A stretch of DNA of 61,666 bases, the filler included, from Myxococcota bacterium (lineage in GTDB: Bacteria; Myxococcota_C; UBA6777), in NCBI GenBank assembly GCA_023150835.1. It is 9 parts of 9 records of this genome, joined end to end, with 100 filler letters (N's around TTAATTAATTAA, not from the genome) between each part and the next. Parts side by side here need not be neighbours in the genome. Positions count along the whole stretch, not along the records: positions 55,911 to 61,666 come from JAKLKB010000213.1; 8 more parts are not named here. The stretch is one strand, 5' to 3'. The notes under the pieces were generated by a model that searched no databases, was not told the origin of the DNA, and worked only from the letters and a program-made list of their open reading frames with translations. The translations under genes were made by a program, and so were the position numbers. Position 1 is the stretch's first letter, and each line of letters starts with the position of its first letter. This document shows positions 7,136 to 61,666 of the stretch, in pieces.

Positions 7136-7235
7136 NNNNNNNNNNNNNNNNNNNNNNNNNNNNNNNNNNNNNNNNNNNNTTAATTAATTAANNNNNNNNN
7201 NNNNNNNNNNNNNNNNNNNNNNNNNNNNNNNNNNN
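7136..7235. other. Artificial contig linker (first of eight)
   Basis: N-run around TTAATTAATTAA (stops in all six frames). Others at 14335-14434, 21465-21564, 28584-28683, 36686-36785, 43175-43274, 49530-49629 and 55811-55910. Confidence 0.99.
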
Positions 7236-14334: not shown

Positions 14335-14466
14335 NNNNNNNNNNNNNNNNNNNNNNNNNNNNNNNNNNNNNNNNNNNNTTAATTAATTAANNNNNNNNNN
14401 NNNNNNNNNNNNNNNNNNNNNNNNNNNNNNNNNNCATACAATTAGGCGGATTTCGTATAAATACGA

Positions 14467-21447: not shown

Positions 21448-21566
21448 GAAACACCGTGTGATTTNNNNNNNNNNNNNNNNNNNNNNNNNNNNNNNNNNNN
21501 NNNNNNNNTTAATTAATTAANNNNNNNNNNNNNNNNNNNNNNNNNNNNNNNNNNNNNNNNNNNNTT

Positions 21567-28583: not shown

Positions 28584-28683
28584 NNNNNNNNNNNNNNNNN
28601 NNNNNNNNNNNNNNNNNNNNNNNNNNNTTAATTAATTAANNNNNNNNNNNNNNNNNNNNNNNNNNNNNNNNNNNNNNNNNNNN

Positions 28684-36685: not shown

Positions 36686-36785
36686 NNNNNNNNNNNNNNN
36701 NNNNNNNNNNNNNNNNNNNNNNNNNNNNNTTAATTAATTAANNNNNNNNNNNNNNNNNNNNNNNNNNNNNNNNNNNNNNNNNNNN

Positions 36786-42568: not shown

Positions 42569-43165
42569 CTATTCTTTCTTTCCTTCGATCTGATACACGA
42601 TCACCAACGAGCTTTGATACTCCACCTCCACCCGCGTTGATCCTCCCGCCACCGTCACTCTCGCCCCCGCTCCCCCCTGAATTCCTAGCCACAACGGACC
42701 CAACCGCCCCATCAACCAGATATCCAACAGCGATGACTGCCGAAACTGCATCGGTTGCGTAGATTGCAACGCCACAGGCAACACCAGCTGCACCGAAAAC
42801 AACAACCGATCCAAACGCAAATGCCCCCCCAATGCCGGCGAAAAGACCCCTTCCACCGAGGGATTGTTCACAGGATACCGCACACTCGCCGCCAACAACA
42901 AATCGATCTGCCAACCCCTCCCCTCCCCCCACAATGGAATCCGACCCCCCATCGATCCACCAATCGCCGCATCCAACGGGCGAAACTCCAAACTCGCCCC
43001 CACATACTCCAAGATCCAACCCCCCACCGATATCTCAGGAAATCCACCCACCAACCCCACACTCTGCCCCCTCAACGGCAAACGCAAATACAACGCATCC
43101 GCCTCCACCCGAAACACCACCCCCACCCACAACAACACCACCACAACACTCCGAACCCACCACAT
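42569..43165 (-). CDS. Hypothetical exported protein, possibly an outer-membrane beta-barrel; start at the contig edge uncertain
   Basis: Signal-like N-terminus and alternating hydrophobic beta-strand pattern. Confidence 0.55.
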   Translation of the reverse strand: MWWVRSVVVVLLWVGVVFRVEADALYLRLPLRGQSVGLVGGFPEISVGGWILEYVGASLEFRPLDAAIGGSMGGRIPLWGEGRGWQIDLLLAASVRYPVNNPSVEGVFSPALGGHLRLDRLLFSVQLVLPVALQSTQPMQFRQSSLLDIWLMGRLGPLWLGIQGGAGARVTVAGGSTRVEVEYQSSLVIVYQIEGKKE

Positions 43166-43305
43166 CCTTCTCTCNNNNNNNNNNNNNNNNNNNNNNNNNN
43201 NNNNNNNNNNNNNNNNNNTTAATTAATTAANNNNNNNNNNNNNNNNNNNNNNNNNNNNNNNNNNNNNNNNNNNNAAGTGCTTTTGGACGAATGGATCTGC
43301 TCGGG

Positions 43306-49392: not shown

Positions 49393-49629
49393 GAGGGTGT
49401 TTGCGAAACTCGCTACATGACAGTTGAAGAAAACAACGAAAACTCGAGGGGTTCATTCAAAACAGATAGCGATGAAGAGGTCAGCGACGCAACAGAGCGA
49501 GGGCAGGCACGGGGGCCTGCCCCTACCTCNNNNNNNNNNNNNNNNNNNNNNNNNNNNNNNNNNNNNNNNNNNNTTAATTAATTAANNNNNNNNNNNNNNN
49601 NNNNNNNNNNNNNNNNNNNNNNNNNNNNN

Positions 49630-51467
49630 CCGTCTTCGTCCAACGTCGCTTTGTGTTGAAGAGAGACCTTCAACCTGTCCGCAAACCATCGTACCCAACG
49701 ATGTGCAACCTCTGGAGTAGGCCGTAAAAAGCGCGTTCCGATGGTGCTTTCGGGATCGGCCACCAAACAACGCGCCGAAAACCCCAGATCCGTCAACATC
49801 CCATCCGCAAGCAGATCGGCGCTGGCTTTTGGCTGGATCTGCAAATGCAGCGACAAGCGCCGCCCACTCAACACTTCGTAATCTGCGGCCCTTGGGCGAT
49901 CCAGATCCCCTCCATCCCATAGCTTATTGAGCGTGCTGACGGTACGCATCCGTTGCTCTTTGGACATGGAGAAACCACCGAGAAACGTACCGCCTTCGTC
50001 ATTTAGCAAACCTTGGGCAAGCTGCCCGACCTTGAGGATGCGAAACAAGCCCTCTTGCGTAGGTTCTTTGACCTGTAGGATCGGTTGCCTCGGTGGTTTC
50101 GGTGGTTCTGTGGGTGGCCCACTTTCGTTGCGTAAGCGTTCTTTTTCGCTGGTTTGCCAACGCCACAACGCGTCGTTGTAGTCCAACTTCTCTTGTTTGT
50201 AGTCGGCTTCCAATTGCCGCTGGTATTCGTGGATGCCGAGTGTTGCGAGGCGATCAATCGCGGTTTTTCGTTCGCCGGATTGGGCGACCGAGACGAAAAA
50301 GCACGAAGTGGGCTGCGAAGAAGTCTCGGGGCCACCGAGACCCGGTATGGAGATGTCGGCGATGTGCTGCGTTGCGACCGCTGTTGCGGCCAGAACAGAC
50401 TGCGCGCAAAGAACGTAGGGAGCGCGTGTGATCTCATGGATTGCTTCGATCACGGGATGGAGGGAGATCTGCGGAAACTCCCCAGCCTTCGGGCGTTCGG
50501 GAACAATGGGCAGGGGATCCATCGGCAGACCTTGTGCGATGCGATAAAGCTCCGGCCAACGCTTGAAGTTCTCAAAAGCCCCCTTGTCAGCGGAGCCAGA
50601 AAGACCAGCGGTATCCTCGAAGACAAAGGGGGTTTCCGCCACAAGTTGTTTGATCTGCTCGGATGTTCGGCCAAGTCGGTGATACCAATCGTAGACATCT
50701 TCGCCTTTTTCGAGATCAGGAAGCTCGACGATCTTGATCGTTCGTACGCCAACCCCTTTGAGGATATCCGCCACTTCTTGTGCGTATTTTTTTCCTGCGA
50801 TATCGGCATCTGGGAGGATCACGATGTCGCGTCCTTGAAGTGCCGTCCAATCGGTTTTGGCGGCGGCGTTTGCGCCTCCTGCGCTCGTCACCGAAAACAA
50901 GCCCTGTTGGGTGTTTGCAACGCACTTTTTCTCGCCTTCGACCACATAGATCGGGCCGTTTGGAGGGAGTGCTTCGCTTTGGTAGAGCGGGCGCGGCCCT
51001 TCGAGATGCGCTTGATACCAACGCTCCCCGATCTTCGAGACGGGGCGGATGATCTTTTTCCCATCACGCCCTTCCCATCGGCAAACCACACAGGCGGGTT
51101 GGCCTTCTCGCATGTAGATCCACGTTCCCGAAGGCTTGCCGAGCTTATAGGCTTGGATCGCTTCGTTGGCTGTGGAAAAAGCCTTGCCTTCGGGCTGTTT
51201 TGTCGGTGGGGTTGTGGTGGAAGAAGCCGCATTCGGCAAGTCCAAGGCCGAAAGGATGTCCTCGAAAGAGCAACCTGCGTGGCAACACAACAGGACGTTG
51301 CCATCGGCATCGGTTCCAATCGAAAGCGAACGGTGCTGATCGTCATGAGAGGGACACTTTGCCTCCCATTGACCGTGTTTTCGGGTCGCTTTGACACTTT
51401 CCAGACGGCCTAGAATCGTGGAGATACTCCTGTTCCTTCGGGCGTTTTGGCCTTGGTGAGCAGTCAT
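49630..51467 (-). CDS. Primase-like replication protein (Zn-binding + TOPRIM + DUF3987/YfjI-like P-loop), 3'-truncated
   Basis: CPSHDD...SLSI...CHAGC; VVEGEK and ILPDAD TOPRIM; AQSGERKT; DEGG. Confidence 0.85.
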
Positions 51468-51588
51468 CTTTCTGTCCTTGCCCGTTATAACGCACGAGAG
51501 TCGGGCTGTTTGGGATGTGGCCCTCTCGGCCTGTCGGTTGGAGAAGAGATACTCTCGGATATAGGCGAGAGCAGAGGAGGTAAGAGGG

Positions 51589-51870
51589 TTATCTCTCCGA
51601 ACAATTCGGCTGAATCACGTATGTTGTGCAAGCAGGCGTTCTTTGAATCGATGTTTCTTCGCTTGTGGGAGGAACTTCGTTGTGTTCGGGTGCAAAATCC
51701 CACATCAGCACATCAAAGTTTGTGGCTTGCTCAATTCGCCTTGCCATCGCGATGGAGGGTGTTCTCCTACCCGCCACATAATGCCCAACGGTAGAGCACG
51801 AAACACCAAGCTTGTCAGCGAATTGCTGAAGCGTGATCTGGTTCTTCTTCAAATAGTCTTTGAGCTTCAT
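51589..51870 (-). CDS. Cro-like XRE HTH regulator
   Basis: MKLKDYL...TLQQFADKLGVSCSTVGHYVAGRRTPS; GGAGG RBS. Confidence 0.85.
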   Translation of the reverse strand: MKLKDYLKKNQITLQQFADKLGVSCSTVGHYVAGRRTPSIAMARRIEQATNFDVLMWDFAPEHNEVPPTSEETSIQRTPACTTYVIQPNCSER

Positions 51871-51887
51871 GGGTACCTCCTGCGACA

Positions 51888-51973
51888 GTTGTACATAATG
51901 CGGAATCACTTGTCAAGATCGTGTTGTACAAATAGTGCAATGTCTTGCTATCGCTGTACGCCATGTATAAGAT
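51888..51973. promoter_or_regulatory. Divergent promoter pair with operator-like boxes
   Basis: Minus: TTGACA(51916-51911)-N17-TACAAC. Plus: TTGCTA(51945)-N17-TAAGAT. Boxes TGTACATAATGCGG, TGTACAAATAGTGCA and TGTACGCCATGTATA. Confidence 0.6.
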
Positions 51974-52000
51974 GAGACAGATTCAAGCACGGAGGGATAT

Positions 52001-52315
52001 ATGTTAGGCGAACGAATCAGGGCGCTAAGAAAGCAGAAAGGCTGGACGCTAAAGGACTTGGCAGAAAGGGCAGACGTAAGCTGGTCGATGATCTCTCATA
52101 TCGAAAGGGGAGAGCGGACGGGAACCATGCAGATACTCGCCAAGATCGCCGAAGCCTTGGATGTCAGTCCTTCTCTTCTTCAAGAGGATGTGGAGCCAGA
52201 ACAATTGGAGGACATTTCTCGGGCGCTGGAAGGGATGGCGACTCTGTCGCGTGAGCAAATGAAAATCGTTCTCTCTGTGATCGAAGGTCTTCGATCAACT
52301 TCAAAACAACCTTAA
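52001..52315 (+). CDS. CI-like XRE HTH repressor (no peptidase domain)
   Basis: LGERIRALRKQKGWTLKDLAERADVS..MISHIERG; GGAGG RBS. Confidence 0.9.
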   Translation: MLGERIRALRKQKGWTLKDLAERADVSWSMISHIERGERTGTMQILAKIAEALDVSPSLLQEDVEPEQLEDISRALEGMATLSREQMKIVLSVIEGLRSTSKQP

Positions 52316-52502
52316 GATCTTTTCTTGATAATTCCAAAATCCCTATAAACCCGCACTTGAGCAACTCTTCTTTGGATAAGTTGTCGTACATTTTCTCACC
52401 TGCCGTGCAACCCGCCTCACTGAACTTATACAACGCTGATCTTATGAGATACTGCGTACATGCACAGAAGTCAACGCATTATACACTTTGGAGATAAAGA
52501 AT

Positions 52503-52531
52503 TTGACAAAACATTTTACATAATGTAAAAC
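52503..52531 (+). promoter_or_regulatory. Sigma70-like promoter overlapped by a perfect palindrome
   Basis: TTGACA-N17-TAAAAC, with TTTTACAT-A-ATGTAAAA at 52514-52530. Confidence 0.7.
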
Positions 52532-52585
52532 ACTCCTATGCCTGCAACATCACCCGTTGCGTTCCGCAACGGCATAGGAGGCCCC

Positions 52586-53197
52586 ATGAACCAATCATCC
52601 TCCCCAAATTACCGCTATGTTCCTGCGTCTTTGTTGGTTGCGTGGATGGAAGAGGCACGCCGCCAGTCCGAAGAACTCACTCGACAGAAGACGACGATCA
52701 CCAAGAATTTGAGCGCAACACGCCAAACGCTCGTGGATATCCACGCAGAGATCCAACGCCGCGCAGAAGTCTCATGGCGCAACCGTCTTCGTCTTGGTCT
52801 TCGCCCGATTCCTCCGATGGTCTCGACCCCTTCATCCATCCCCCCGACCCCTTCATCCATCCACCCAACTCCTGCGCCCGTTCCTCCGCCACCACCGCCG
52901 ACTCCTGCCATCGCCTCGATCCCCATCAAAGAGCAGGGCAACGAGCAAGGCTGGGTGGAGCTTCGCCTCGACGAGTCCCGAACTTGCGGAGAGTGCGCGA
53001 ACTTCCGTATCGAGAGAACTGGTGTGGAAGAACACCGTGGATACTGCTTTTATGTGGACGATTCTGTTGGGAGCCGCGCACCCGCGAGTGGATGCCCTCG
53101 CTTTGATCCGCTCCCCAAACCCTCTCCCCAAGCTGTATCTGCGCTTGATTCGCTCGCAACCCCCGAAGAGATGGAGATATGCGATGTGCGCCGCTAA
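52586..53197 (+). CDS. Hypothetical protein (coiled coil, Pro-rich linker, Cys4 cluster)
   Basis: GGAGG RBS; CGEC...GYC...GCPRF. Confidence 0.65.
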   Translation: MNQSSSPNYRYVPASLLVAWMEEARRQSEELTRQKTTITKNLSATRQTLVDIHAEIQRRAEVSWRNRLRLGLRPIPPMVSTPSSIPPTPSSIHPTPAPVPPPPPPTPAIASIPIKEQGNEQGWVELRLDESRTCGECANFRIERTGVEEHRGYCFYVDDSVGSRAPASGCPRFDPLPKPSPQAVSALDSLATPEEMEICDVRR

Positions 53198-53900
53198 GCT
53201 TTTGACGGTGGCCACGTTGCCCCGCCAAAAGACGGGCCGACTTTGTGCGACCATCGCCAACAAGGTTCTTTTGTTAAAACGCGAAAAGACCCCGATTTTG
53301 CTCGTGGATACAAGCAAACTTCAAGCAGCACAGACCTTTTCTGAGCACAACGAACATCGCATCGAGCTGATTCTGAACAAAGGCGTTTCGGCACTTTCGC
53401 ATGATAGCTTTTGGGTTTCCACAACGAGCCTCGAAGAGTCGGAAGCTGTGATGGATTGGGTCTTTTGGGCGATGGCAGGTGAACAAGGAGACTTTCTCTT
53501 CTCTCTCGAAGACGAAAGTATGTTTTCAACCAAGTGCGAAGCAGCACAAGTAGAAAAGAAAAATCCGCAACATGCGGAAGAGTGCGCCCCAGAGGACACA
53601 GCATGGAGCCGCCACAAGACACTTGCGCGGCTCCACGCTGCTGCAAAGGAAGTGGGGTTGGATCACGCTGGTATCAAGTCGTTGTTGCCGGTGGAGTGGT
53701 CTTTTCGGACATTAGAACAGCGGATGTTGGATGTGGTGATGAGGCTTCTTGGTGCAAAGCACATCGGGGCTTTACGCGAGGCGTGGGATGCCCATCCGTG
53801 CGCGGCATTGGTTCGCCTCAAAGATTACATGAAAGAGCAACTCTTTCTCAAAGAAATGGGATGCGCGGACGTGTCAACGCGCCGAGGAGGTGGATCTTGA
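53184..53900 (+). CDS. Hypothetical protein
   Basis: Open frame overlapping its neighbours in operon fashion (MCAAKLL...); no recognised motif. Confidence 0.5.
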   Translation: MCAAKLLTVATLPRQKTGRLCATIANKVLLLKREKTPILLVDTSKLQAAQTFSEHNEHRIELILNKGVSALSHDSFWVSTTSLEESEAVMDWVFWAMAGEQGDFLFSLEDESMFSTKCEAAQVEKKNPQHAEECAPEDTAWSRHKTLARLHAAAKEVGLDHAGIKSLLPVEWSFRTLEQRMLDVVMRLLGAKHIGALREAWDAHPCAALVRLKDYMKEQLFLKEMGCADVSTRRGGGS

Positions 53901-54319
53901 TGCTGCCGCTTAGACTTCGACACGGCGATGAAACCGCCAAGATGCTCGGCTATCCGAGCGCACACGCGCTACGTGCAGCGCGTTGTCGTGGCTACCTTCC
54001 CAAAGGTTCTTGTTACAAAGAGGGAGGTCATTGGTATTACTTGCCACACGTCTTTTTGGAGAAACAAGATGGCCAAGAAATTACCCAGCGGGATACAGAG
54101 ATCAGGCAAAACCTACCGCATTCAATTTCGGTCACGCCATACCAACCCAGGCATGATCTACAGCGAACGTCTTCCACAAGGCACAACCCTACGGAGTGCC
54201 GAGGCATATCTAGCGAAGCTGCGAGAAGAAGATCGCCAAGAGACGCTTCAATGGAGAGACGAGAAGAAACGAGAAAAAGAATCGCATCGGATCTGGACCA
54301 TTGGCGACTTCGCAACTGA
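53900..54319 (+). CDS. Putative excisionase-like HTH protein (3' part overlaps the integrase)
   Basis: GGAGG RBS and TGATG coupling; ETAKMLGY...ALRAARCRG.LP...KEGGHWYY is HTH_17-like. Confidence 0.5.
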   Translation: MLPLRLRHGDETAKMLGYPSAHALRAARCRGYLPKGSCYKEGGHWYYLPHVFLEKQDGQEITQRDTEIRQNLPHSISVTPYQPRHDLQRTSSTRHNPTECRGISSEAARRRSPRDASMERREETRKRIASDLDHWRLRN

Positions 54320-55178
54320 GATCTACCTACCACACTGTGCGGCTTCCAATCGACCCTCAACGTTAGAGAGAAAGGTTCAAGAATTTAAACGCATCGGCCC
54401 TTGGTTTTGGGATCTGCGCCTGGATGGTGTGGATGCGGCGACGGTGAGTCGCTTTGCAGCGGAGAGAAAAGCGGAGGGAGTAAGGGCGAGAACAGTCAAC
54501 ATAGGAATCGCGCAGATCAAGCACCTACTGAATGTTGCTCATGAATTGGGCTTTCTTATCCATCCCCCACCGAAGTTTCGCCGTCTTCCTGAAAAGGATA
54601 AGAAGTCTGTGCGTTGGCTATCAAGAGACGAGATAGAACTCGCCCTCGCCAACGCAACAGCAAAAGGGGAAGTTTGGAGGGCGCTATGTTTGTTTTTGCT
54701 GGGGACAGGGGCTAGGTGGGGCGAAACACGCGCTCTTCGCTGGAGCGATCTCGACTTGGAAGAGGGCATCGTGACCTTTCACGGCCACACAACGAAAGGG
54801 GGGAAGGATCGGATGATACCGTTATTGCCCGAAGTGGTTAGCGCCTTGGCTTCGCTGACTCGTCTTGGTGATCTGGTGTTTATGCATCGGTGGCGAGAGA
54901 AAGTCTGCCCCATGCCCGTAGATGGAAAACTGGGTGGGGATGTCTATCCGTGGGATGGTGAAGGGTTATCGGCCTCACCACACGTATTGCGTCATACGTT
55001 TGCGGCGATGAGACTGAGGGGAGGAGTGGGAATGGAAAAAGTCCAAAAATGGCTCGGTCACAGCACCATCAGTCTAACCGTCGATACATACGGTCACATC
55101 GTGCCGGAGGAACATGCAGAAGAGATAGCGAAGGGGTATCATGCAGGGACAAGACCGACCTTGCGAGCGGTGAAATAG
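54069..55178 (+). CDS. Tyrosine recombinase/integrase
   Basis: GARWGE (R), TKGG (K), HVLRHT (HxxR), LGH and T..YGH (catalytic Y). Confidence 0.95.
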   Translation: MAKKLPSGIQRSGKTYRIQFRSRHTNPGMIYSERLPQGTTLRSAEAYLAKLREEDRQETLQWRDEKKREKESHRIWTIGDFATEIYLPHCAASNRPSTLERKVQEFKRIGPWFWDLRLDGVDAATVSRFAAERKAEGVRARTVNIGIAQIKHLLNVAHELGFLIHPPPKFRRLPEKDKKSVRWLSRDEIELALANATAKGEVWRALCLFLLGTGARWGETRALRWSDLDLEEGIVTFHGHTTKGGKDRMIPLLPEVVSALASLTRLGDLVFMHRWREKVCPMPVDGKLGGDVYPWDGEGLSASPHVLRHTFAAMRLRGGVGMEKVQKWLGHSTISLTVDTYGHIVPEEHAEEIAKGYHAGTRPTLRAVK

Positions 55179-55273
55179 GCGAGTGCAGATTTGTCACCAC
55201 CTTGTCACCAGAGGGAAAAAAGGAGAGGAAGGAGCGATGTGTAGATGCGGCGAAAGTCGCGGATGGAAGGGGA

Positions 55274-55346
55274 TGAGCGAGGTGGGACTCGAACCCACAC
55301 TGGAAGGATTTTAAGTCCTTTGTCTCTACCTTTGGACTACTCGCCC
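55274..55346 (-). tRNA. tRNA-Leu(TAA), 73 nt, short variable loop, CCA not encoded
   Basis: GGGCGAG/CTCGCTC acceptor stem; AAGGA-CTTAAAA-TCCTT anticodon arm; GTGGG-TTCGAGT-CCCAC T arm; discriminator A. Confidence 0.93.
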
Positions 55347-55512
55347 GAGAAAGCAGGATCAGCCTAAAAAAAACAGGGAACCGATATAGCCAAAAGCACA
55401 CGCCCTGTCAAGCGCTATCTTCTGTTTGCGGGTGGGGTGCGCAGGAGTGCGGTTTGCTGGTAGGGTTGCGTGAAGGTGTGATCTGCAGGGTGATACGAAA
55501 TCCGCCTCTTGA

Positions 55513-55624
55513 TACGAGATCCGCAGGGTGTGTGATCGCAAAACGTAGGGGCAGACAGGTGTGGCTGCCCAACGATCGGGTGTCTACGCACTATCCTACG
55601 GGAACACTTCACACGGATATCGTA
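55513..55624 (+). mobile_element. MITE family A copy with GTAG-REP
   Basis: TA-CGAGATCCG...GTAGGGGCAGACAGGTGTGGCTGCCC...CGGATATCG-TA. Confidence 0.7.
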
Positions 55625-55704
55625 TGATACGAAATCCTGTGATTGTGTGATCATGTCCGCTCGCTCCTCAATATCCCGATAGACGGGCGGTTCGCGAACC
55701 GCCC

Positions 55705-55810
55705 CATTGGCATCAGGTTAAGAAGTAAAAGCAGATTCTTGTGGCATAATGGCGCACCTCAAAACGCGAAAGGGGAATAGAGATGTTCACACAAAGCGCC
55801 GAAGCACAAG
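55705..55810 (+). mobile_element. 5' end of an IS4-family (IS231-like) element
   Basis: TIR CATTGGCATCAGGTTAAG is identical to 14201-14218; followed by CATAAT, AGGGGA and ATG 55783 (MFTQSAEAQ...) at the contig end. Confidence 0.6.
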
Positions 55811-55910
55811 NNNNNNNNNNNNNNNNNNNNNNNNNNNNNNNNNNNNNNNNNNNNTTAATTAATTAANNNNNNNNNNNNNNNNNNNNNNNNNNNNNNNNNN
55901 NNNNNNNNNN

Positions 55911-56171
55911 ATTAAAACCCGCCCGTTTTGTGATCGTACAGAGGTAGTGGCAGCCCCCTGTGGCTGCCCAATAATCGGGCGTCTATGTATTAAAACCCGC
56001 CCGTTTTGTGATCGTACAGAGGTAGTGGCAGCCCCCTGTGTTGCCCAATAATCGGGCGTCTACGTATTAAAACCCCGCCCGTTTTGTGATCGTACAGAGG
56101 TAGTGGCAGCCCCCTGTGGCTGCCTAATAATCGGGCGTCTACGTATTCGCACACATCACTTGGATATCGTA
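55911..56171 (+). repeat. Three tandem ~78-bp REP-containing units ending in a family A right end
   Basis: ATTAAAACCCGCCCGTTTTGTGATCGTACAGAGGTAGTGGCAGCCCCCTGTGGCTGCCCAATAATCGGGCGTCTA at 55911, 55989 and 56066; ends TGGATATCGTA. Confidence 0.9.
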
Positions 56172-56216
56172 TCGTCGCCTCCGTCACAGGAGACATAAAG
56201 AACAGGAGTCAGGAGT

Positions 56217-58238
56217 ATGTTGCGCAAGATGGCAGTGTGGCTGGTGGGCTTGGTGCTGTTGGCGGGTGTGGTGGGGTTGGAGGCGCGAAGCAAGGGTGAG
56301 ATCGTGTTGGAGGTTGTGGGAGAAGGGCAGAATGTAGGCGCGCAAAAGCCGGGTGGGAAGGTGGTTGCGGTGTTGGTGGGGATCAACACGTACAAGGACG
56401 ATCGGTTTCGTCGGCTGCGGTATGCGGAAAAAGATGCGCGGGATATGAAGAAGTATCTGCTTTCGATGGGTGTGAAGTCTCGGGATATCAAGCTATTGGT
56501 GGGGCAGCAAGCGACGCGGCGAGCGATCCAGCGCGCATTGTATGTATGGCTGCCGAAGAAGGTAGGCCCGAAGGACGGGGTGTTTGTGTTCTTTAGTGGA
56601 CATGGCGAAAAGTGGGGCGTGAAGGACTATATCGTGCCGTACGATGCAGAAGCGGATGCGTTGGAGATATCGGGATTGTTGGGTGCTGCGGTGGAGCGTT
56701 CGTTGAATCGGCTGCGTGTGCGGCAGCAAGTGTTGGTGTTGGATACGTGCTTTAGTCGTGCGATAGCATCGGAGTATGTGGCGATGATGGCGAATGTGCG
56801 ACCGCGAAGCAACTTCTTGCCGAACACACACTTGAAGCGATTTCAAGGGCGTGGGCGTGTGGTGTTCGCGTCGTCGGATGGAAATGAAGTGTCGCTGGAG
56901 CCAAAGAACCTAGGGAATGGGCTGTACACGCACTACTTCTTGAAAGGACTACGAGGGGAAGCGGACAAGGACGGAGACAAGTGCATCACAGCGCGAGAAG
57001 TCCACGATTATGTGAGCGTCAAGGTCTCGGTACACGCAAAGGGAAAACAAACGCCCGCATGGGATCAAAACAGCACAAAAGAGATCTTATTGGTGCGGAT
57101 GCCGGGGTGTGGGCAACGGGTGGCCTCGACAGGAACGAGTGGAACGGGCGGTAGCAGCGGAACGCCTCCAAGCGGCGGAGGGTGGGGCGTGTTGGTGGTG
57201 TCGGCAGATGTGGGGGGCGTGGAGGTGTATGTGGGCCCTGTGTACAGGGCGCTTCTGCTGAAATCGGGAGAGAGAACGCGGTTGCGGCTACGAGCGGGAC
57301 AGCACGAAGTGACGTTGAAGAAGCAGGGCTATAAAGACCAGAGCGTGCTTGTGCAAGTCGAAGCAGGCGGAGAACTGCCGTTGGAAAGGCGGATGATCCG
57401 AGATGATGCGGAGGCGGTGGTGCAACGTCCGACACCGCCAAGACAACCGCCCCTTGTGGCATCCGCGCAACCGAGCCGTGCGAGTTGGCCAACAGAGCCT
57501 AGTGCAGGGCAAGGACATCAGTTCATGGTGAAACGACAGACCTTCAGGGTGCGATGGATCCCCGCAGGTTCGTTTGTGATGGGGAGTCCAGAGAACGAGT
57601 CGGGGCGTGATAGTGATGAAGGGCCACAGCGGAGTGTCACGATTAGCAAAGGGTATTGGATGCTAGAGAGCGAGGTGACACAAGGGCAGTACAAGGCGCT
57701 GATGGGGTCGAATCCATCGCGTTTCTCGTCGTGCGGCGACAACTGCCCTGTGGAGCGGGTGAGTTGGCATCAAGCGCGGGCGTTTGCGGATAAGCTGTCG
57801 AGAGTGCAAGGTCTTGCACCTTGTACGACGACGGGCAGGGGGATTTTTCGGTGCAAAGGATGGCGGTTGCCAACGGAAGCAGAGTGGGAATACGCAGCGC
57901 GAGCGAGAAGTACAGGAGCGCGGTATGGGGAGGTCGACGATGTGGCTTGGTATGGTGGCAATAGCAAGGGCAAAACGCATCCGGTGGGCAAACAGAGCGC
58001 GAATGGTTGGGGATTGAAGGATATGTTGGGGAATGTGTGGGAGTGGACAATGGATGTGGAGGGTTCGTACGCAGGTATGTCTACGCAGGATCCACTACGT
58101 AGCAGTGGCAGTACGAAGCGGGTGTTTCGAGGTGGTAGGTGGGCCTCCGTCGCGAGGTTCGTGCGCTCGGCGTTTCGCTACTTCAGTGCGCCGACGTATC
58201 GCGGCTACTTCCTCGGTTTCCGTTTGCTCAGGTACTGA
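56217..58238 (+). CDS. Secreted caspase (peptidase C14) - PEGA - FGE-sulfatase/C-type-lectin-fold protein; candidate DGR target
   Basis: Signal peptide; FSGHG and LDTC dyad; PEGA-like segment; IPAGSFVMGS, RLPTEAEWEYAAR, DMLGNVWEW, RGGxW...GFRL. Confidence 0.9.
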   Translation: MLRKMAVWLVGLVLLAGVVGLEARSKGEIVLEVVGEGQNVGAQKPGGKVVAVLVGINTYKDDRFRRLRYAEKDARDMKKYLLSMGVKSRDIKLLVGQQATRRAIQRALYVWLPKKVGPKDGVFVFFSGHGEKWGVKDYIVPYDAEADALEISGLLGAAVERSLNRLRVRQQVLVLDTCFSRAIASEYVAMMANVRPRSNFLPNTHLKRFQGRGRVVFASSDGNEVSLEPKNLGNGLYTHYFLKGLRGEADKDGDKCITAREVHDYVSVKVSVHAKGKQTPAWDQNSTKEILLVRMPGCGQRVASTGTSGTGGSSGTPPSGGGWGVLVVSADVGGVEVYVGPVYRALLLKSGERTRLRLRAGQHEVTLKKQGYKDQSVLVQVEAGGELPLERRMIRDDAEAVVQRPTPPRQPPLVASAQPSRASWPTEPSAGQGHQFMVKRQTFRVRWIPAGSFVMGSPENESGRDSDEGPQRSVTISKGYWMLESEVTQGQYKALMGSNPSRFSSCGDNCPVERVSWHQARAFADKLSRVQGLAPCTTTGRGIFRCKGWRLPTEAEWEYAARARSTGARYGEVDDVAWYGGNSKGKTHPVGKQSANGWGLKDMLGNVWEWTMDVEGSYAGMSTQDPLRSSGSTKRVFRGGRWASVARFVRSAFRYFSAPTYRGYFLGFRLLRY

Positions 58239-58286
58239 CGCTTGTCCCTTTTACCCTTTTTCCCTTGGCCGAACGCAGGCGAGGTC
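58107..58286 (+). other. Putative DGR variable region plus downstream cis elements
   Basis: NNC/NNT codons at the usual Asn template positions; post-stop CCCTTTTACCCTTTTTCCCTT and small hairpin GGCCGAACGCAGGCGAGGTC. Confidence 0.6.
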
Positions 58287-58547
58287 TACGTAGAGGGTGG
58301 TGGCGGAAGTGGCCGAAACGGAGACGCGGGAGTCTGAAGCGAAGAAAGCGCAGCAAGCGGAGCGTTAAGCGGAGCGGCAAGCGACCGAAGCGGAAGACCT
58401 CCCGCAAGGCGAAGAGAAGGCCTCGATGAGAAGGGGGGTTTGGGGGGAAGTCCCCCCAACGATTCTGGCGGGGGTGAGATTGCGGACAGTTTGAAATGGG
58501 CTGCGGACAGTGTATGTTCCGATCATGGGTCTGTTTGGAGGTGTAGC

Positions 58548-61331
58548 ATGAGGTCGCGGATTCGGGTGTTTGGGTGGTTGTGTGGAGCAGCGGTGCTGTG
58601 TTGTGTGGGGGCGTGTGAGCCGACGAAGCCGCCTGTTCCAGCGGTGGGTTGGGATGGAAAGATCTACGAACTACCGATACCCGAGCGTTCGGCGACTTGT
58701 GCGGTGGCGGAGAGTGCAGAGAAGTTGAAGCCGTGTGCGGAGGGTTCGGGAGCCTTTGGGTTTTGGCGGATCGATGAGCAAGGGCTGCCGGCGTATGAGT
58801 ACACGCTAGACCAACGCAGCGATCCCAAGGCGTTTTACAAACATTCTCGGAACAAAGAGCCGCGCACCCATCTTCATCAGATCGGAAACGACCGACTCAA
58901 CGGGATCGCATACAACGAAGGCTATGTCGAGCTGATGAGCCAAGAGCGCGGTGTGACTTACCACAATCGCTTTGATGAAAAGTATCGCAACTACACAGGC
59001 GGTTTTTCTTTGCTCGAAGAAGACGGGGTGGTGTGGAATACGGCGCAGCGTTGGATGCCTGCGGAAGCCAAGGCAAGGCGAGTATTTGGGGCGGGTTATG
59101 TGACGTATATCACGCAGTATCGGGGGATTCGGTTGACCAAGACGATCCATGCGGCCTCGGGTGATCTGCCTGCGCTGGTCAGCGATGTGGTGATCGAAAA
59201 CCTTACGCCCAACCAGCGGGAGATCCGGCATTACGAGTATTGGGATGTGAATCGCCATCAGGCGGTGTTTCAACCGCTGCGCACAAAAGAGGCGGGAGAT
59301 GCAGGAGATATCGAGCGAGATCTGTTGAACAAAAGCTTTACGCAAAAAGTGCAATGGGACGCCAAAGCCCAACGTGTGTGGGTGGAGTTTGTCAAAAAGC
59401 CCGATATCAGCGTCCCTGCAAAAGAGGCCGTCTCTACGGCTGATCTGCATCCCTCGCCGATCTTTTTGGCGGCGGTCGCTCCATCCGCAGTCGTCGAAGC
59501 CAACGATCTTTTTACTGATCAATCAGCTTTTTGGGGACAGGGCGGCCCGACACAGCCCGAAGCCGTCAAGCAACGCGCTCAAGGCTCGCTGCTCGAACAA
59601 GGCGAAGCCTTCCGCCAAAATGCGATGTTTGCGATGCGCCACAGTCTTTCTATCGCCCCCAAAGCAACGCTCTCGCTGCGTTTTGTGTACGGTTATCTGC
59701 CAAGCGGCCACGATGCCAGCTTTTTGCAGCGATATGCCGATCCCGAAACACAGCAGAAGCCGCACATCCAACGCTTTCAGGACAAGTTGGCCTACTTTGT
59801 CGCGCCTGATGCGCCGTTTCTTTCGCGGGAAGTGCCTTGGCACGCTTACAACCTGCTTTCGTCGGTCAACACGTTGGACTACTTCAAAGCGGCGGTGACA
59901 CCGCAGGGATCGGCGTATCTGTACTTGCATGGATTTGATGGAGCGCCCCGCGATCATGCGCTGTTTTCGATGCCGTTGGTGTATCTGCGCCCTGATCTGG
60001 CACGCGGCAACTTGCGCTTGATCATGGGGATGACGCGAGCAGAAGATGGCGGTATCAGCTACAGCTATCACGGAAACGGATACTTGGAGAATGCGATCAT
60101 CCACAAATATCCGTCGGATCTGGATATCTTCTTTTTGGCGTCGATGGCAGAATATCTCGCCGCTACGGGAGATCGGGCCTTTTTGAAAGAAAAGATCGCT
60201 TTTCACCCCGGCAATCAAAACGAGTTCGCAGGAAAGCGCCCTTCGTATGTGAAAGACGATACGGTGTTGGATCACATCCGTTGTGCATTTTATCATCTGA
60301 AAGGGTTTGTAAAGCGCGGACCGAACGGCTTGATTCGGATCTGGGACGGCGATTGGTCAGACGGGATCGTCTGGGAAAATGGCGAAAAGTACGATGCCAA
60401 CAAAAGCATCCAGTCTGGGGAATCGATCCCGAATACGCAGATGGCCTTGTATGCGCTGCCTTTGATGGCCGAAGTGATCGAGCCGGATGATGCGGTGCTT
60501 GCGGGAGAGATGCGGGCCTTTGCAGCGGAGCTATTGGAGCCGATCCGAAAAGAGTTTTTGGGGAAGTATTTTGCGCGGGCATGGCTGCGAGATCGCAATG
60601 ATCAGCCTGTTCATGTGGGGGTGGGCGGTGTGGATTTGGAGTCGCAGCCTTGGGGGATCATGGCGGAGCAGATCCTCGATCCTGCCCAAAAGACGGCGCT
60701 GCTCGACCACATACACGAGCGGCTGGACAAGGATTCACCGATCGGACCGCCTTTTACGCCCGGGGGCGCGGTGTGGCCGGCGATATCGCAGCTTGTGACG
60801 TGGGCGTATGCGCTTCATCAACCCGAACGGGCGTGGCAGACGCTGCTTCGACAGACGTATCATGCACACGCGACGCAGTGGCCGGATCTCTGGTTTGGGA
60901 TCTGGTCAGGGGCCGATGGTTTCTTTTCCAAGTCGGGCAATGCGTGGGATAGCGTCGCTACGCCGATGACGGACTGGCCTGTGATGAACCTGAACCAAGA
61001 TGCGATGTTTTTGCTCGGTTTGTTGCGGGTGGCAGGGATCCGACCCCATCGCAAGGGCATCTTGATCCAGCCGACAGGAGCGCCCAAGACTTTTTCGCTG
61101 AAGTTTCCGCTGGTGTCGTTGACGGTCGAAGCAAAGAGCGCAAAGGGCGAATACACCGCAGCCAACGACGGCGAAGTTTGGCTGTATTTCAATGCACCGT
61201 TTGGACAGACCTTGAAACAAGCGACGTTGCAAACAGCCCAAGGGACGGAGATCTTGACGGGTGCAGGGCCGTTGGGGAAAGCCGTACAGGTCAAAACAGG
61301 CGAGATCGTGCGTTATACGATCGCTTGGTGA
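58548..61331 (+). CDS. Lipoprotein, GH94-like glycoside phosphorylase/(alpha/alpha)6 glycosidase
   Basis: Lipobox VGAC; IGNDR N-terminal domain; PRD, EYLAATGD, GDWSDG, LESQPW and GAVW motifs. Confidence 0.7.
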   Translation: MRSRIRVFGWLCGAAVLCCVGACEPTKPPVPAVGWDGKIYELPIPERSATCAVAESAEKLKPCAEGSGAFGFWRIDEQGLPAYEYTLDQRSDPKAFYKHSRNKEPRTHLHQIGNDRLNGIAYNEGYVELMSQERGVTYHNRFDEKYRNYTGGFSLLEEDGVVWNTAQRWMPAEAKARRVFGAGYVTYITQYRGIRLTKTIHAASGDLPALVSDVVIENLTPNQREIRHYEYWDVNRHQAVFQPLRTKEAGDAGDIERDLLNKSFTQKVQWDAKAQRVWVEFVKKPDISVPAKEAVSTADLHPSPIFLAAVAPSAVVEANDLFTDQSAFWGQGGPTQPEAVKQRAQGSLLEQGEAFRQNAMFAMRHSLSIAPKATLSLRFVYGYLPSGHDASFLQRYADPETQQKPHIQRFQDKLAYFVAPDAPFLSREVPWHAYNLLSSVNTLDYFKAAVTPQGSAYLYLHGFDGAPRDHALFSMPLVYLRPDLARGNLRLIMGMTRAEDGGISYSYHGNGYLENAIIHKYPSDLDIFFLASMAEYLAATGDRAFLKEKIAFHPGNQNEFAGKRPSYVKDDTVLDHIRCAFYHLKGFVKRGPNGLIRIWDGDWSDGIVWENGEKYDANKSIQSGESIPNTQMALYALPLMAEVIEPDDAVLAGEMRAFAAELLEPIRKEFLGKYFARAWLRDRNDQPVHVGVGGVDLESQPWGIMAEQILDPAQKTALLDHIHERLDKDSPIGPPFTPGGAVWPAISQLVTWAYALHQPERAWQTLLRQTYHAHATQWPDLWFGIWSGADGFFSKSGNAWDSVATPMTDWPVMNLNQDAMFLLGLLRVAGIRPHRKGILIQPTGAPKTFSLKFPLVSLTVEAKSAKGEYTAANDGEVWLYFNAPFGQTLKQATLQTAQGTEILTGAGPLGKAVQVKTGEIVRYTIAW

Positions 61332-61346
61332 GGGGATGGCGGATTA

Positions 61347-61524
61347 TACGAGATCCGCCCGTTTTGTGATCGTAAAAATGGTGGGGCAGACAGGTGTGGC
61401 TGCCTAAGAATCGGGCGATCCGCCCGTTGTGTGATCGTAAAAATGGTGGGGCAGACAGGTGTGGCTGCCCAAGAATCGGGCGTCTAGGCGATATCTTACG
61501 AGCACACTTCGCTCGGATATCGTA
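61347..61524 (+). mobile_element. MITE family A copy with an internally duplicated REP unit
   Basis: TA-CGAGATCCG, two ~65-bp units containing GGGGCAGACAGGTGTGGCTGCC, then CGGATATCG-TA. Confidence 0.75.
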
Positions 61525-61609
61525 TGAGAGGGTGTCTAAAACAGTGAGATCTTTTGGATGTGTACACAGAAACATCGAAGGAATGGACGTCTTGTGATTC
61601 CCCTCACCC

Positions 61610-61658
61610 CAAGAGGCAACACTTCTCAGCGAGGGCAACCGCGCATGGTTGCCCCTAC
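61610..61658 (-). repeat. REP unit shared with 7104-7135
   Basis: CAAGAGG(C/T)AACACTTCTCAGCGAGGGCAACC at both sites; here completed by GGTTGCCCCTAC. Confidence 0.8.
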
Positions 61659-61666
61659 GTGTCGGA

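Follow-up and report, generated by a model that had tools for sequence, protein, structure and literature searches.

In the 61,666-nt stretch of DNA analysed here (the window), which comes from a Myxococcota bacterium (assembly GCA_023150835.1), we examined an open reading frame (ORF) of 673 aa that encodes an apparently exported caspase–lectin protein whose tail is very probably a variable region (VR) written by a diversity-generating retroelement (DGR). To our knowledge, DGRs are the only bacterial system that rewrites the binding site of a protein at will. Relative to its ortholog in the nearest genome, the 3′ end of the gene appears to have been rewritten with every sequence hallmark of DGR mutagenic homing save the template itself. 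The DGR reading can be regarded as well supported by the alignments, in which the tail is hypervariable far beyond chance. The gene had first been singled out in an earlier reading of the same DNA (the original prediction), which gave the plus-strand ORF and its last 40 residues correctly but let its interval run to 58286, 48 nt past the stop codon (58238).

Rewriting of the gene 3′ end relative to the nearest genome

Five genomes of the phylum (G001–G005), all fragmented metagenome-assembled genomes (MAGs), were used for comparison. The nearest to the window was G001 (21% common 31-mers; 86% complete, with G002 at 64%), in which an ortholog lies on contig C12 and is followed by the same downstream gene. 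Most of the ORF upstream of the tail (56260–57919) was 97.0% identical between the two (49/1660 mismatches), the invariant 3′ end with the following intergenic DNA (58212–58439) 98.7% (3/228), and the conserved GH94-like gene downstream 95.6% (128/2892, with 23, 16 and 89 mismatches at codon positions 1, 2 and 3). In contrast, positions 58119–58211 were only 71.0% identical (27/93), and their mismatches were distributed 12/13/2 over the codon positions. Three further A-bearing sites lie upstream (58113, 58116 and 58117), giving 30 variable sites in 58113–58211 that end 27 nt before the stop codon and place the VR within the FGE-type domain, at the 3′ end of the gene.

These differences are far denser than those of the flanks (30/99 versus 180/4780, p=2e-18), are dominated by transversions (transitions to transversions 7:23 versus 184:97 in the flanks, p=1.4e-5), and fall almost entirely at codon positions 1 and 2 (28/30 versus 39/128 in the downstream gene, Fisher p=1.4e-10), while the scaffold codons of the VR are identical to the base between the window and G001. 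Since the flanks are 96–99% identical yet the VR differs, at least one homing event would have occurred after the window strain and G001 split.

The case had at first been built on 13 codons of the tail that end in C or T. All 13 do so, and all of them vary between the window and G001 with their third base fixed. Nine, however, encode Phe, Tyr or AGY-type Ser and end in C or T by necessity, so that only GCC, TCC, GTC and GGC, all ending in C, are informative. Among the four-fold degenerate codons of the first 630 codons (n=333), the third base is G in 190, A in 73, T in 39 and C in 31, which agrees with the preference for G-ending codons claimed earlier and puts four C endings at about 0.09^4 by composition (arithmetic from these counts). 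The ortholog comparison is much stronger evidence than these codon endings. Also variable between the window and G001 are AGG/AGT, TCG/TCA, ACG/GCG and AAG/TTG. The first of these pairs is the codon for the Arg of the GGRW motif, whose AGG had been considered a misfit to an AAY origin; since this codon belongs to the variable set, reading AGG in the window and AGT in G001 and giving Gly in the related protein P0074, the template need not be AAY there, and the objection falls away.

Outside the VR, the 49 differences at 56260–57919 split 17/13/19 over the codon positions, unlike those of the downstream gene, and the caspase-to-lectin part of the gene, the VR aside, seems to be under relaxed or diversifying selection. 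The intergenic DNA after the gene is more conserved relative to G001 than either flanking coding region, and purine-rich AAGCG-type short repeats are present in 58212–58439. Homing sequences, of the type that serves the initiation of mutagenic homing, are expected at the 5′ end of such an invariant stretch and are definable only with a template repeat (TR).

The same variable scaffold on other proteins

A search with the last 78 residues of the protein, together with earlier searches, yielded eight proteins with the same VR scaffold (scaffold A), namely the window protein, its ortholog on G001:C12, P0074, P0121, P0208, P0209, P0210 and P0216, whose N-terminal parts carry a caspase domain, a Sel1-like domain or no recognised domain. 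A real TR of this kind is present in G003, where a 2.3-kb contig (C901; L035 1-2280) carries a complete DGR cassette consisting of an HRDC-like protein, Avd, a reverse transcriptase (RT) with IGNLTSQ and YMDD motifs, and a TR at about 1750–1866, the translation of which is an Asn-rich version of the window VR scaffold. The Avd of this cassette scored 65.9 bits with NF033474, below the cut-off of 80, and a masked stretch interrupts its gene. Across the eight scaffold-A proteins, 14 of 40 positions had at least four different residues, and every one of the 13 positions that are Asn in the G003 TR was among them (Fisher p=1.2e-9).

NNY codons are unable to encode Lys, Glu, Gln, Met or Trp. At 13 variable positions, comprising 12 of the G003 TR Asn positions (position 1 was omitted, its codon here not being NNY) and one extra variable position, these residues accounted for only 1 of 104, compared with 342 of 1520 (22.5%) in the 190 aa that precede the tail in these eight proteins (p=4e-10). 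Together with the ortholog differences and the eight-protein scaffold, this alphabet bears out the C-terminal FGE/C-type lectin domain with a DGR-type hypervariable region that had been proposed.

A second scaffold (B), ending in ...IGFRVVRSSP and with the same NNC pattern, was found in seven copies, of which G001 has six and a JGI contig the seventh; one scaffold-B gene in this set encodes a Ser/Thr kinase–FGE fusion. As scaffold A occurs in several genes that differ in their N-terminal modules, a single template probably supplies more than one target. A free-standing 3′ fragment of a scaffold-B VR (about 100 nt) was also observed on G001:C409 (L011 5906-6160), with no FGE domain upstream and two copies of a 48-nt unit after it; this fragment may have arisen by truncation of a target or by ectopic homing.

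Variation of this kind might be sought in gene conversion among the many FGE paralogs, combined with diversifying selection on the binding surface and with no retroelement at all. G001 does have 33 FGE-domain matches, and just upstream of the VR a clear mosaic segment (57920–58085) has 87% identity with a different G001 paralog (C293), so that this segment probably stems from paralog recombination and not from a DGR, to judge by these identities. In the VR, gene conversion would bring third-position and scaffold differences, whereas third positions are nearly spared and scaffold codons unchanged; moreover, transversions prevail by 23:7, the residues follow the NNY alphabet, and the positions that vary match the Asn codons in a real TR. 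Gene conversion is therefore a very improbable source of the tail.

Predicted architecture of the protein

The protein combines a putative signal peptide or signal anchor, a caspase domain, a PEGA-like spacer, a Pro-rich linker and the FGE-type C-lectin domain that holds the VR (Table 1). The N-terminal part is, by sequence, a caspase-like (C14) protease with a putative His129/Cys178 dyad, as the proposed caspase fusion had implied. His129 (codon 56601–56603) lies in an SGHG motif that aligns to the SGHG (catalytic-His motif) of yeast metacaspase 4F6O in a weak match (E 0.003), while Cys178 (codon 56748–56750), outside the aligned stretch, was assigned by its DTC motif and spacing only. The score with the NCBIfam EACC1-associated caspase subfamily (86.7) was below its cut-off of 140, and the protein was therefore not placed in that subfamily.

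A hydrophobic N-terminus similar to that of the window protein is found in the orthologs P0121 (75% identical) and P0122 (54% identical), and this conserved segment is consistent with the secretion suggested earlier; the protein is most likely located outside the cytoplasm. The PEGA-like region of the window protein scores just below the Pfam cut-off (19.8 versus 20.8 bits), whereas that of P0121 exceeds it with 31.8 bits. In passages of one published analysis, PEGA is described as associating with the cell wall and as placed after a transmembrane segment (PMC7159879).

For the C-terminal domain, the best relative among solved structures is TvpA of Treponema denticola, a DGR variable protein (2Y3C, E 5.1e-31, compared with about 2e-10 for true FGEs), and the VR aligns column for column with the RV.RGG.W...LGFRL segment at the TvpA C-terminus. 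The Pfam FGE-sulfatase score of 150 bits and weak NCBIfam matches to PvdO, GldK and EgtB would also fit an ordinary FGE or related enzyme of these families fused to a protease. All 10 NCBIfam matches listed are, however, far below their cut-offs (e.g. PvdO, 98.9 versus 500), so that the protein is not among the named FGE-fold enzymes, and every enzyme matches far less well than TvpA. The last 62 residues contain no Cys, although the catalytic cysteine pair of FGE lies in the matching segment. An enzymatic role of this sort is hardly credible, and the domain is most likely an FGE-type C-lectin domain like that of TvpA, with no enzymatic function.

The fusion itself is common in metagenomes, as PF00656 and PF03781 occur together in 23 of the 76 proteins found by the tail-only search. 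Part or all of the gene is contained in 20 listed runs from nine studies, the settings of which are activated sludge and wastewater.

Searches for a template and a reverse transcriptase

Several results weigh against this reading of the gene. No cognate TR was seen in any searched set, which leaves adenine specificity deduced rather than observed. The RT and Avd profiles PF00078, PF05635 and NF033474 and the G003 RT protein, used as queries, brought up neither a DGR-type RT nor Avd in G001, G002, G004 or G005, and the pattern searches yielded no TR-like copy in these genomes. The window, in which a second VR copy was sought at ≥55% identity, is likewise free of RT, Avd and TR; the original prediction was right on this point, but the fact says little, as the window is a concatenation of nine contigs and its lack of RT and TR informs only on the 306 nt before the gene and the 3.4 kb after it. 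The scaffold-A pattern had no match in JGI metagenome contigs, but this pattern was overly stringent, given that the AGN codon varies at its first base as well; the scaffold-A 3′ pattern had none in IMG/VR, and blastn of the VR matched none of the phage and plasmid records.

A GC-rich hairpin or cruciform stands shortly 3′ of the VR in many DGR targets, though not in all. None was found here, the fold of the 126-nt DNA having −14.1 kcal/mol against −18.3 ± 3.0 for shuffled sequences (z +1.42), and no inverted repeats were reported after the VR. The CCCTTTT-type repeat and small hairpin that had been noted after the stop come down to two 9-nt copies and a 4-bp stem over the stop codon, neither of them above chance. 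On the protein side, one of the 104 residues, a Lys of the more distant P0121, departs from the NNY alphabet; the residue-alphabet test was not fully blind, its positions being taken from the G003 TR with one picked for varying; and export was read by eye from the N-terminus.

Further searches covered related material. In G001–G005, the 3′ anchor pattern (≤3 mismatches) and the scaffold-A pattern matched the ortholog only. The scaffold-B pattern gave no match in IMG/VR and one further VR copy, with no TR, in JGI contigs. The G003 RT protein had no match in IMG/VR, and an A-tolerant scan of 180 loci with the G003 TR reached at best 0.76 of non-A sites, in unrelated genomes. A DGR-RT-like motif was present in 2 of 80 loci encoding relatives of the protein, which is uninformative for the window gene. 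An AAY-rich stretch at 42690 was considered as a TR and rejected, as it proved to belong to an ordinary gene of a different contig piece, read on the reverse strand.

Apart from that of G003:C901, the RTs found in G001–G005 were of the group II intron type, the retron-like single type or a tandem retron-type double form, none of them of DGR type. The double form, a protein of 720–723 aa with two tandem retron-type RT domains (PADLOC RT_XIII, 360 bits; NCBIfam retron St85, 308 bits), is encoded on G001:C386 (L009 241-2403) and occurs in all five genomes (also G002:C17, G003:C709, G004:C35 and G005:C7); it is not of the DGR clade, and its conservation is unusual.

Where the diversifier may reside

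Diversification in trans is likely, and we rate the chance that the cassette lies at another place in the genome and works on the gene from there as slightly better than even. The G003 cassette presents the converse situation, as neither G003 nor any fetched locus yielded a VR that matches its TR, which implies that cassette and target are often not assembled or binned together in MAGs of this phylum.

Alternatively, the cassette may have been lost after writing the VR, which would since have evolved as ordinary DNA, with strain differences that represent old alleles, inherited or exchanged. In four of the five phylum genomes, including both of the nearest genus, no DGR RT, Avd or TR was found, as expected of such a frozen relic. 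On the other hand, these genomes are fragmented MAGs, and G003 shows the reverse gap; furthermore, genes that are 97% (upstream) and 98.7% (downstream) identical differ at 30 VR sites, which would require recent homing or import of an allele. A contig from sequencing run X6 also speaks, weakly, against a relic, as described below. We regard loss of the cassette as a possible but doubtful explanation.

Assembled Logan contigs of four runs were compared with the window at 85% likeness, and the bin 58151–58181 had no cover in any of the four. Contigs that match the window exactly end at 58014, 58044 and 58079, and cover returns at 58204, 58274 and 58186, in the last case with nine differences. 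This hole was not counted as population heterogeneity; it proves nothing, and the breaks coincide with k-mers common to paralogs. In run X6, a contig links 58096 with 58213 by a stretch that finds no place on the window at this likeness, which is the only hint, and a weak one, that the DGR may still be active.

The cassette might also act in cis, from a position directly upstream of the gene and beyond the 78-nt minisatellite that opens its contig. In either assembly the contig breaks off at the gene 5′ end (the window piece starts at 55911, and G001:C12 ends 36 nt into the ORF), and a VR-like TR is a classic cause of such breaks. The minisatellite alone nevertheless explains the break in the window, which it probably caused; each of its units contains a GC-rich palindrome, as observed by eye. 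In most DGRs, Avd, TR and RT lie downstream of the target, whereas the gene downstream here is the conserved GH94-like one, and on G001:C12 the 8.8 kb downstream of the ortholog contain no cassette. Nor was a DGR-type RT, Avd or TR found on any assembled G001 contig. A cassette in cis is thus improbable.

More speculatively, the protein may be an extracellular, retargetable protease, a secreted or wall-associated caspase belonging to a multi-gene set in which at least two VR scaffolds are carried by caspase, Ser/Thr-kinase, Sel1-like and other modules; these would owe their diversification either to a mobile or extrachromosomal element that the sludge community has in common or to a non-canonical enzyme. 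We give this extension little credence; if true, the recognition repertoire of the host would depend on an element that the host does not stably encode.

Under a DGR origin, wherever the cassette resides, the RT would copy the TR with random bases placed opposite its adenines, and the resulting cDNA would replace the VR, so that the 13 NNY-type codons and a few single sites would be randomised and the scaffold codons kept fixed. The variable lectin face would then bind changing ligands and bring or activate the protease. Export, action in trans, present DGR activity and function are the parts of this scheme that we infer.

Composition of the window and feature coordinates

Sixteen runs of 44 N form eight linkers (N44, 12 bases, N44; the 12 bases are TTAATTAATTAA at the one linker read), and the window therefore consists of nine contigs of about 6–8 kb that were joined artificially, adjacency across the linkers not being physical. 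The gene lies on its own piece of 5,756 nt (55911–61666), the same length as the only contig recorded for the identical protein, and the DNA linked to it amounts to the 306 nt upstream and 3.4 kb downstream mentioned above. A separate piece (49630–55810) resembles a small integrative island, with unknown ORFs, a recombinase, a tRNA-Leu and a primase. The integrase and tRNA-Leu (53928–55346) were ruled out as neighbours of the gene by the linker at 55811–55910.

Table 1. Features of the caspase–lectin gene, its contig and other pieces of the window.
Feature	Position	Strand	Basis or remark
Whole ORF, 673 aa: putative signal/anchor, caspase, PEGA-like spacer, linker, FGE-type C-lectin domain with candidate VR	56217..58238	+	ORF call and Pfam
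N-terminal Arg/Lys, then hydrophobic stretch (aa 1–24): putative Sec signal peptide or signal anchor	56217..56288	+	By-eye reading
Peptidase_C14 (caspase) domain, aa 50–289	56364..57083	+	PF00656, 68.2 bits, cut-off 21.4
PEGA-like beta-sandwich spacer, aa 323–386	57183..57374	+	Pfam, 19.8 bits, cut-off 20.8
FGE-sulfatase (C-type-lectin fold) domain, aa 447–672	57555..58232	+	Pfam, 150.4 bits; TvpA 2Y3C, E 5.1e-31
Mosaic segment within the FGE domain	57920..58085	+	59.6% identical to G001 ortholog, 39 gap columns
Variable core of the candidate DGR VR	58113..58211	+	Ortholog alignment; 30 sites in 17 codons differ from G001
Invariant VR 3′ end (LGFRLLRY and stop) plus intergenic DNA	58212..58439	+	3/228 mismatches versus G001
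78-nt tandem repeat, 3.0 copies, 95% matches	55911..56147		Tandem Repeats Finder; opens the gene's contig, 70 nt before the start codon
N linkers	7136-7235, 14335-14434, 21465-21564, 28584-28683, 36686-36785, 43175-43274, 49530-49629, 55811-55910		Sequence reading
DUF3987/Toprim primase	49578-51467	-	ORF as listed crosses N linker 49530-49629
Tyrosine recombinase (integrase)	53928-55178	+	Separate contig piece
tRNA-Leu(taa)	55274-55346	-	Separate contig piece

Comparison with known systems

A variable binding site coupled to a caspase suggests a device that recognises and then cleaves, with possible targets outside the cytoplasm such as prey, neighbouring cells, phage or matrix. The role in predation or defence that the original prediction had suggested would be speculative. 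The case also carries a practical warning, in that VR and cassette are often separated in fragmented MAGs, and windows of concatenated contigs make the statement that no RT is nearby meaningless.

Among solved structures, TvpA is the closest in sequence, and the VR is aligned with its C-terminal segment. The window protein differs from TvpA, a lipoprotein that has no protease domain and is encoded beside its own cassette.

Caspase–lectin DGR fusions have already been described in cyanobacteria, and the present case extends them to a wastewater phylum of five species and to an apparently extracytoplasmic protein. Sections of Vallota-Eastman et al. (2020; PMC7517822) report cyanobacterial DGR variable proteins, "remote" ones included, with an N-terminal orthocaspase and a C-terminal C-type lectin domain. 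As far as these sections go, the likeness extends to the architecture, a caspase-type protease followed by a C-terminal C-type lectin/FGE domain with the VR at the 3′ end, and to large paralog families with kinase, caspase and other N-terminal modules and with remote targets away from the cassette. Unlike the cyanobacterial proteins, which the same sections give as mostly predicted cytosolic, the window protein has a putative signal or anchor and a PEGA-like domain; moreover, it belongs to another lineage, a five-genome phylum from activated sludge and wastewater, with no cognate TR or RT identified. A link between FGE-type domains, DGRs and conflict systems has likewise been drawn in passages of PMC7159879. 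A full-text search of the literature found no paper that pairs "diversity-generating retroelement" with "Myxococcota", and one that pairs it with "PEGA", in which PEGA, in the portion consulted, belongs to other systems.

The DGR targets of Thiohalocapsa PB-PSB1 offer a further parallel, being diversified in trans, with caspase-like or peptidase domains in some of them, according to parts of Dore et al. (2024; PMC10907252). In those parts, the targets carry mostly STAND NTPase or vWA modules, unlike the window protein, and a TR match at all non-adenine sites and a measured population diversification are reported, whereas the present argument is made from the sequence pattern. They are also read there as hypervariable sensors coupled to effectors, in which they resemble the window protein. 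Compared with known cases, the protein adds two modest twists, a probable extracytoplasmic location and a very thinly sampled phylum.

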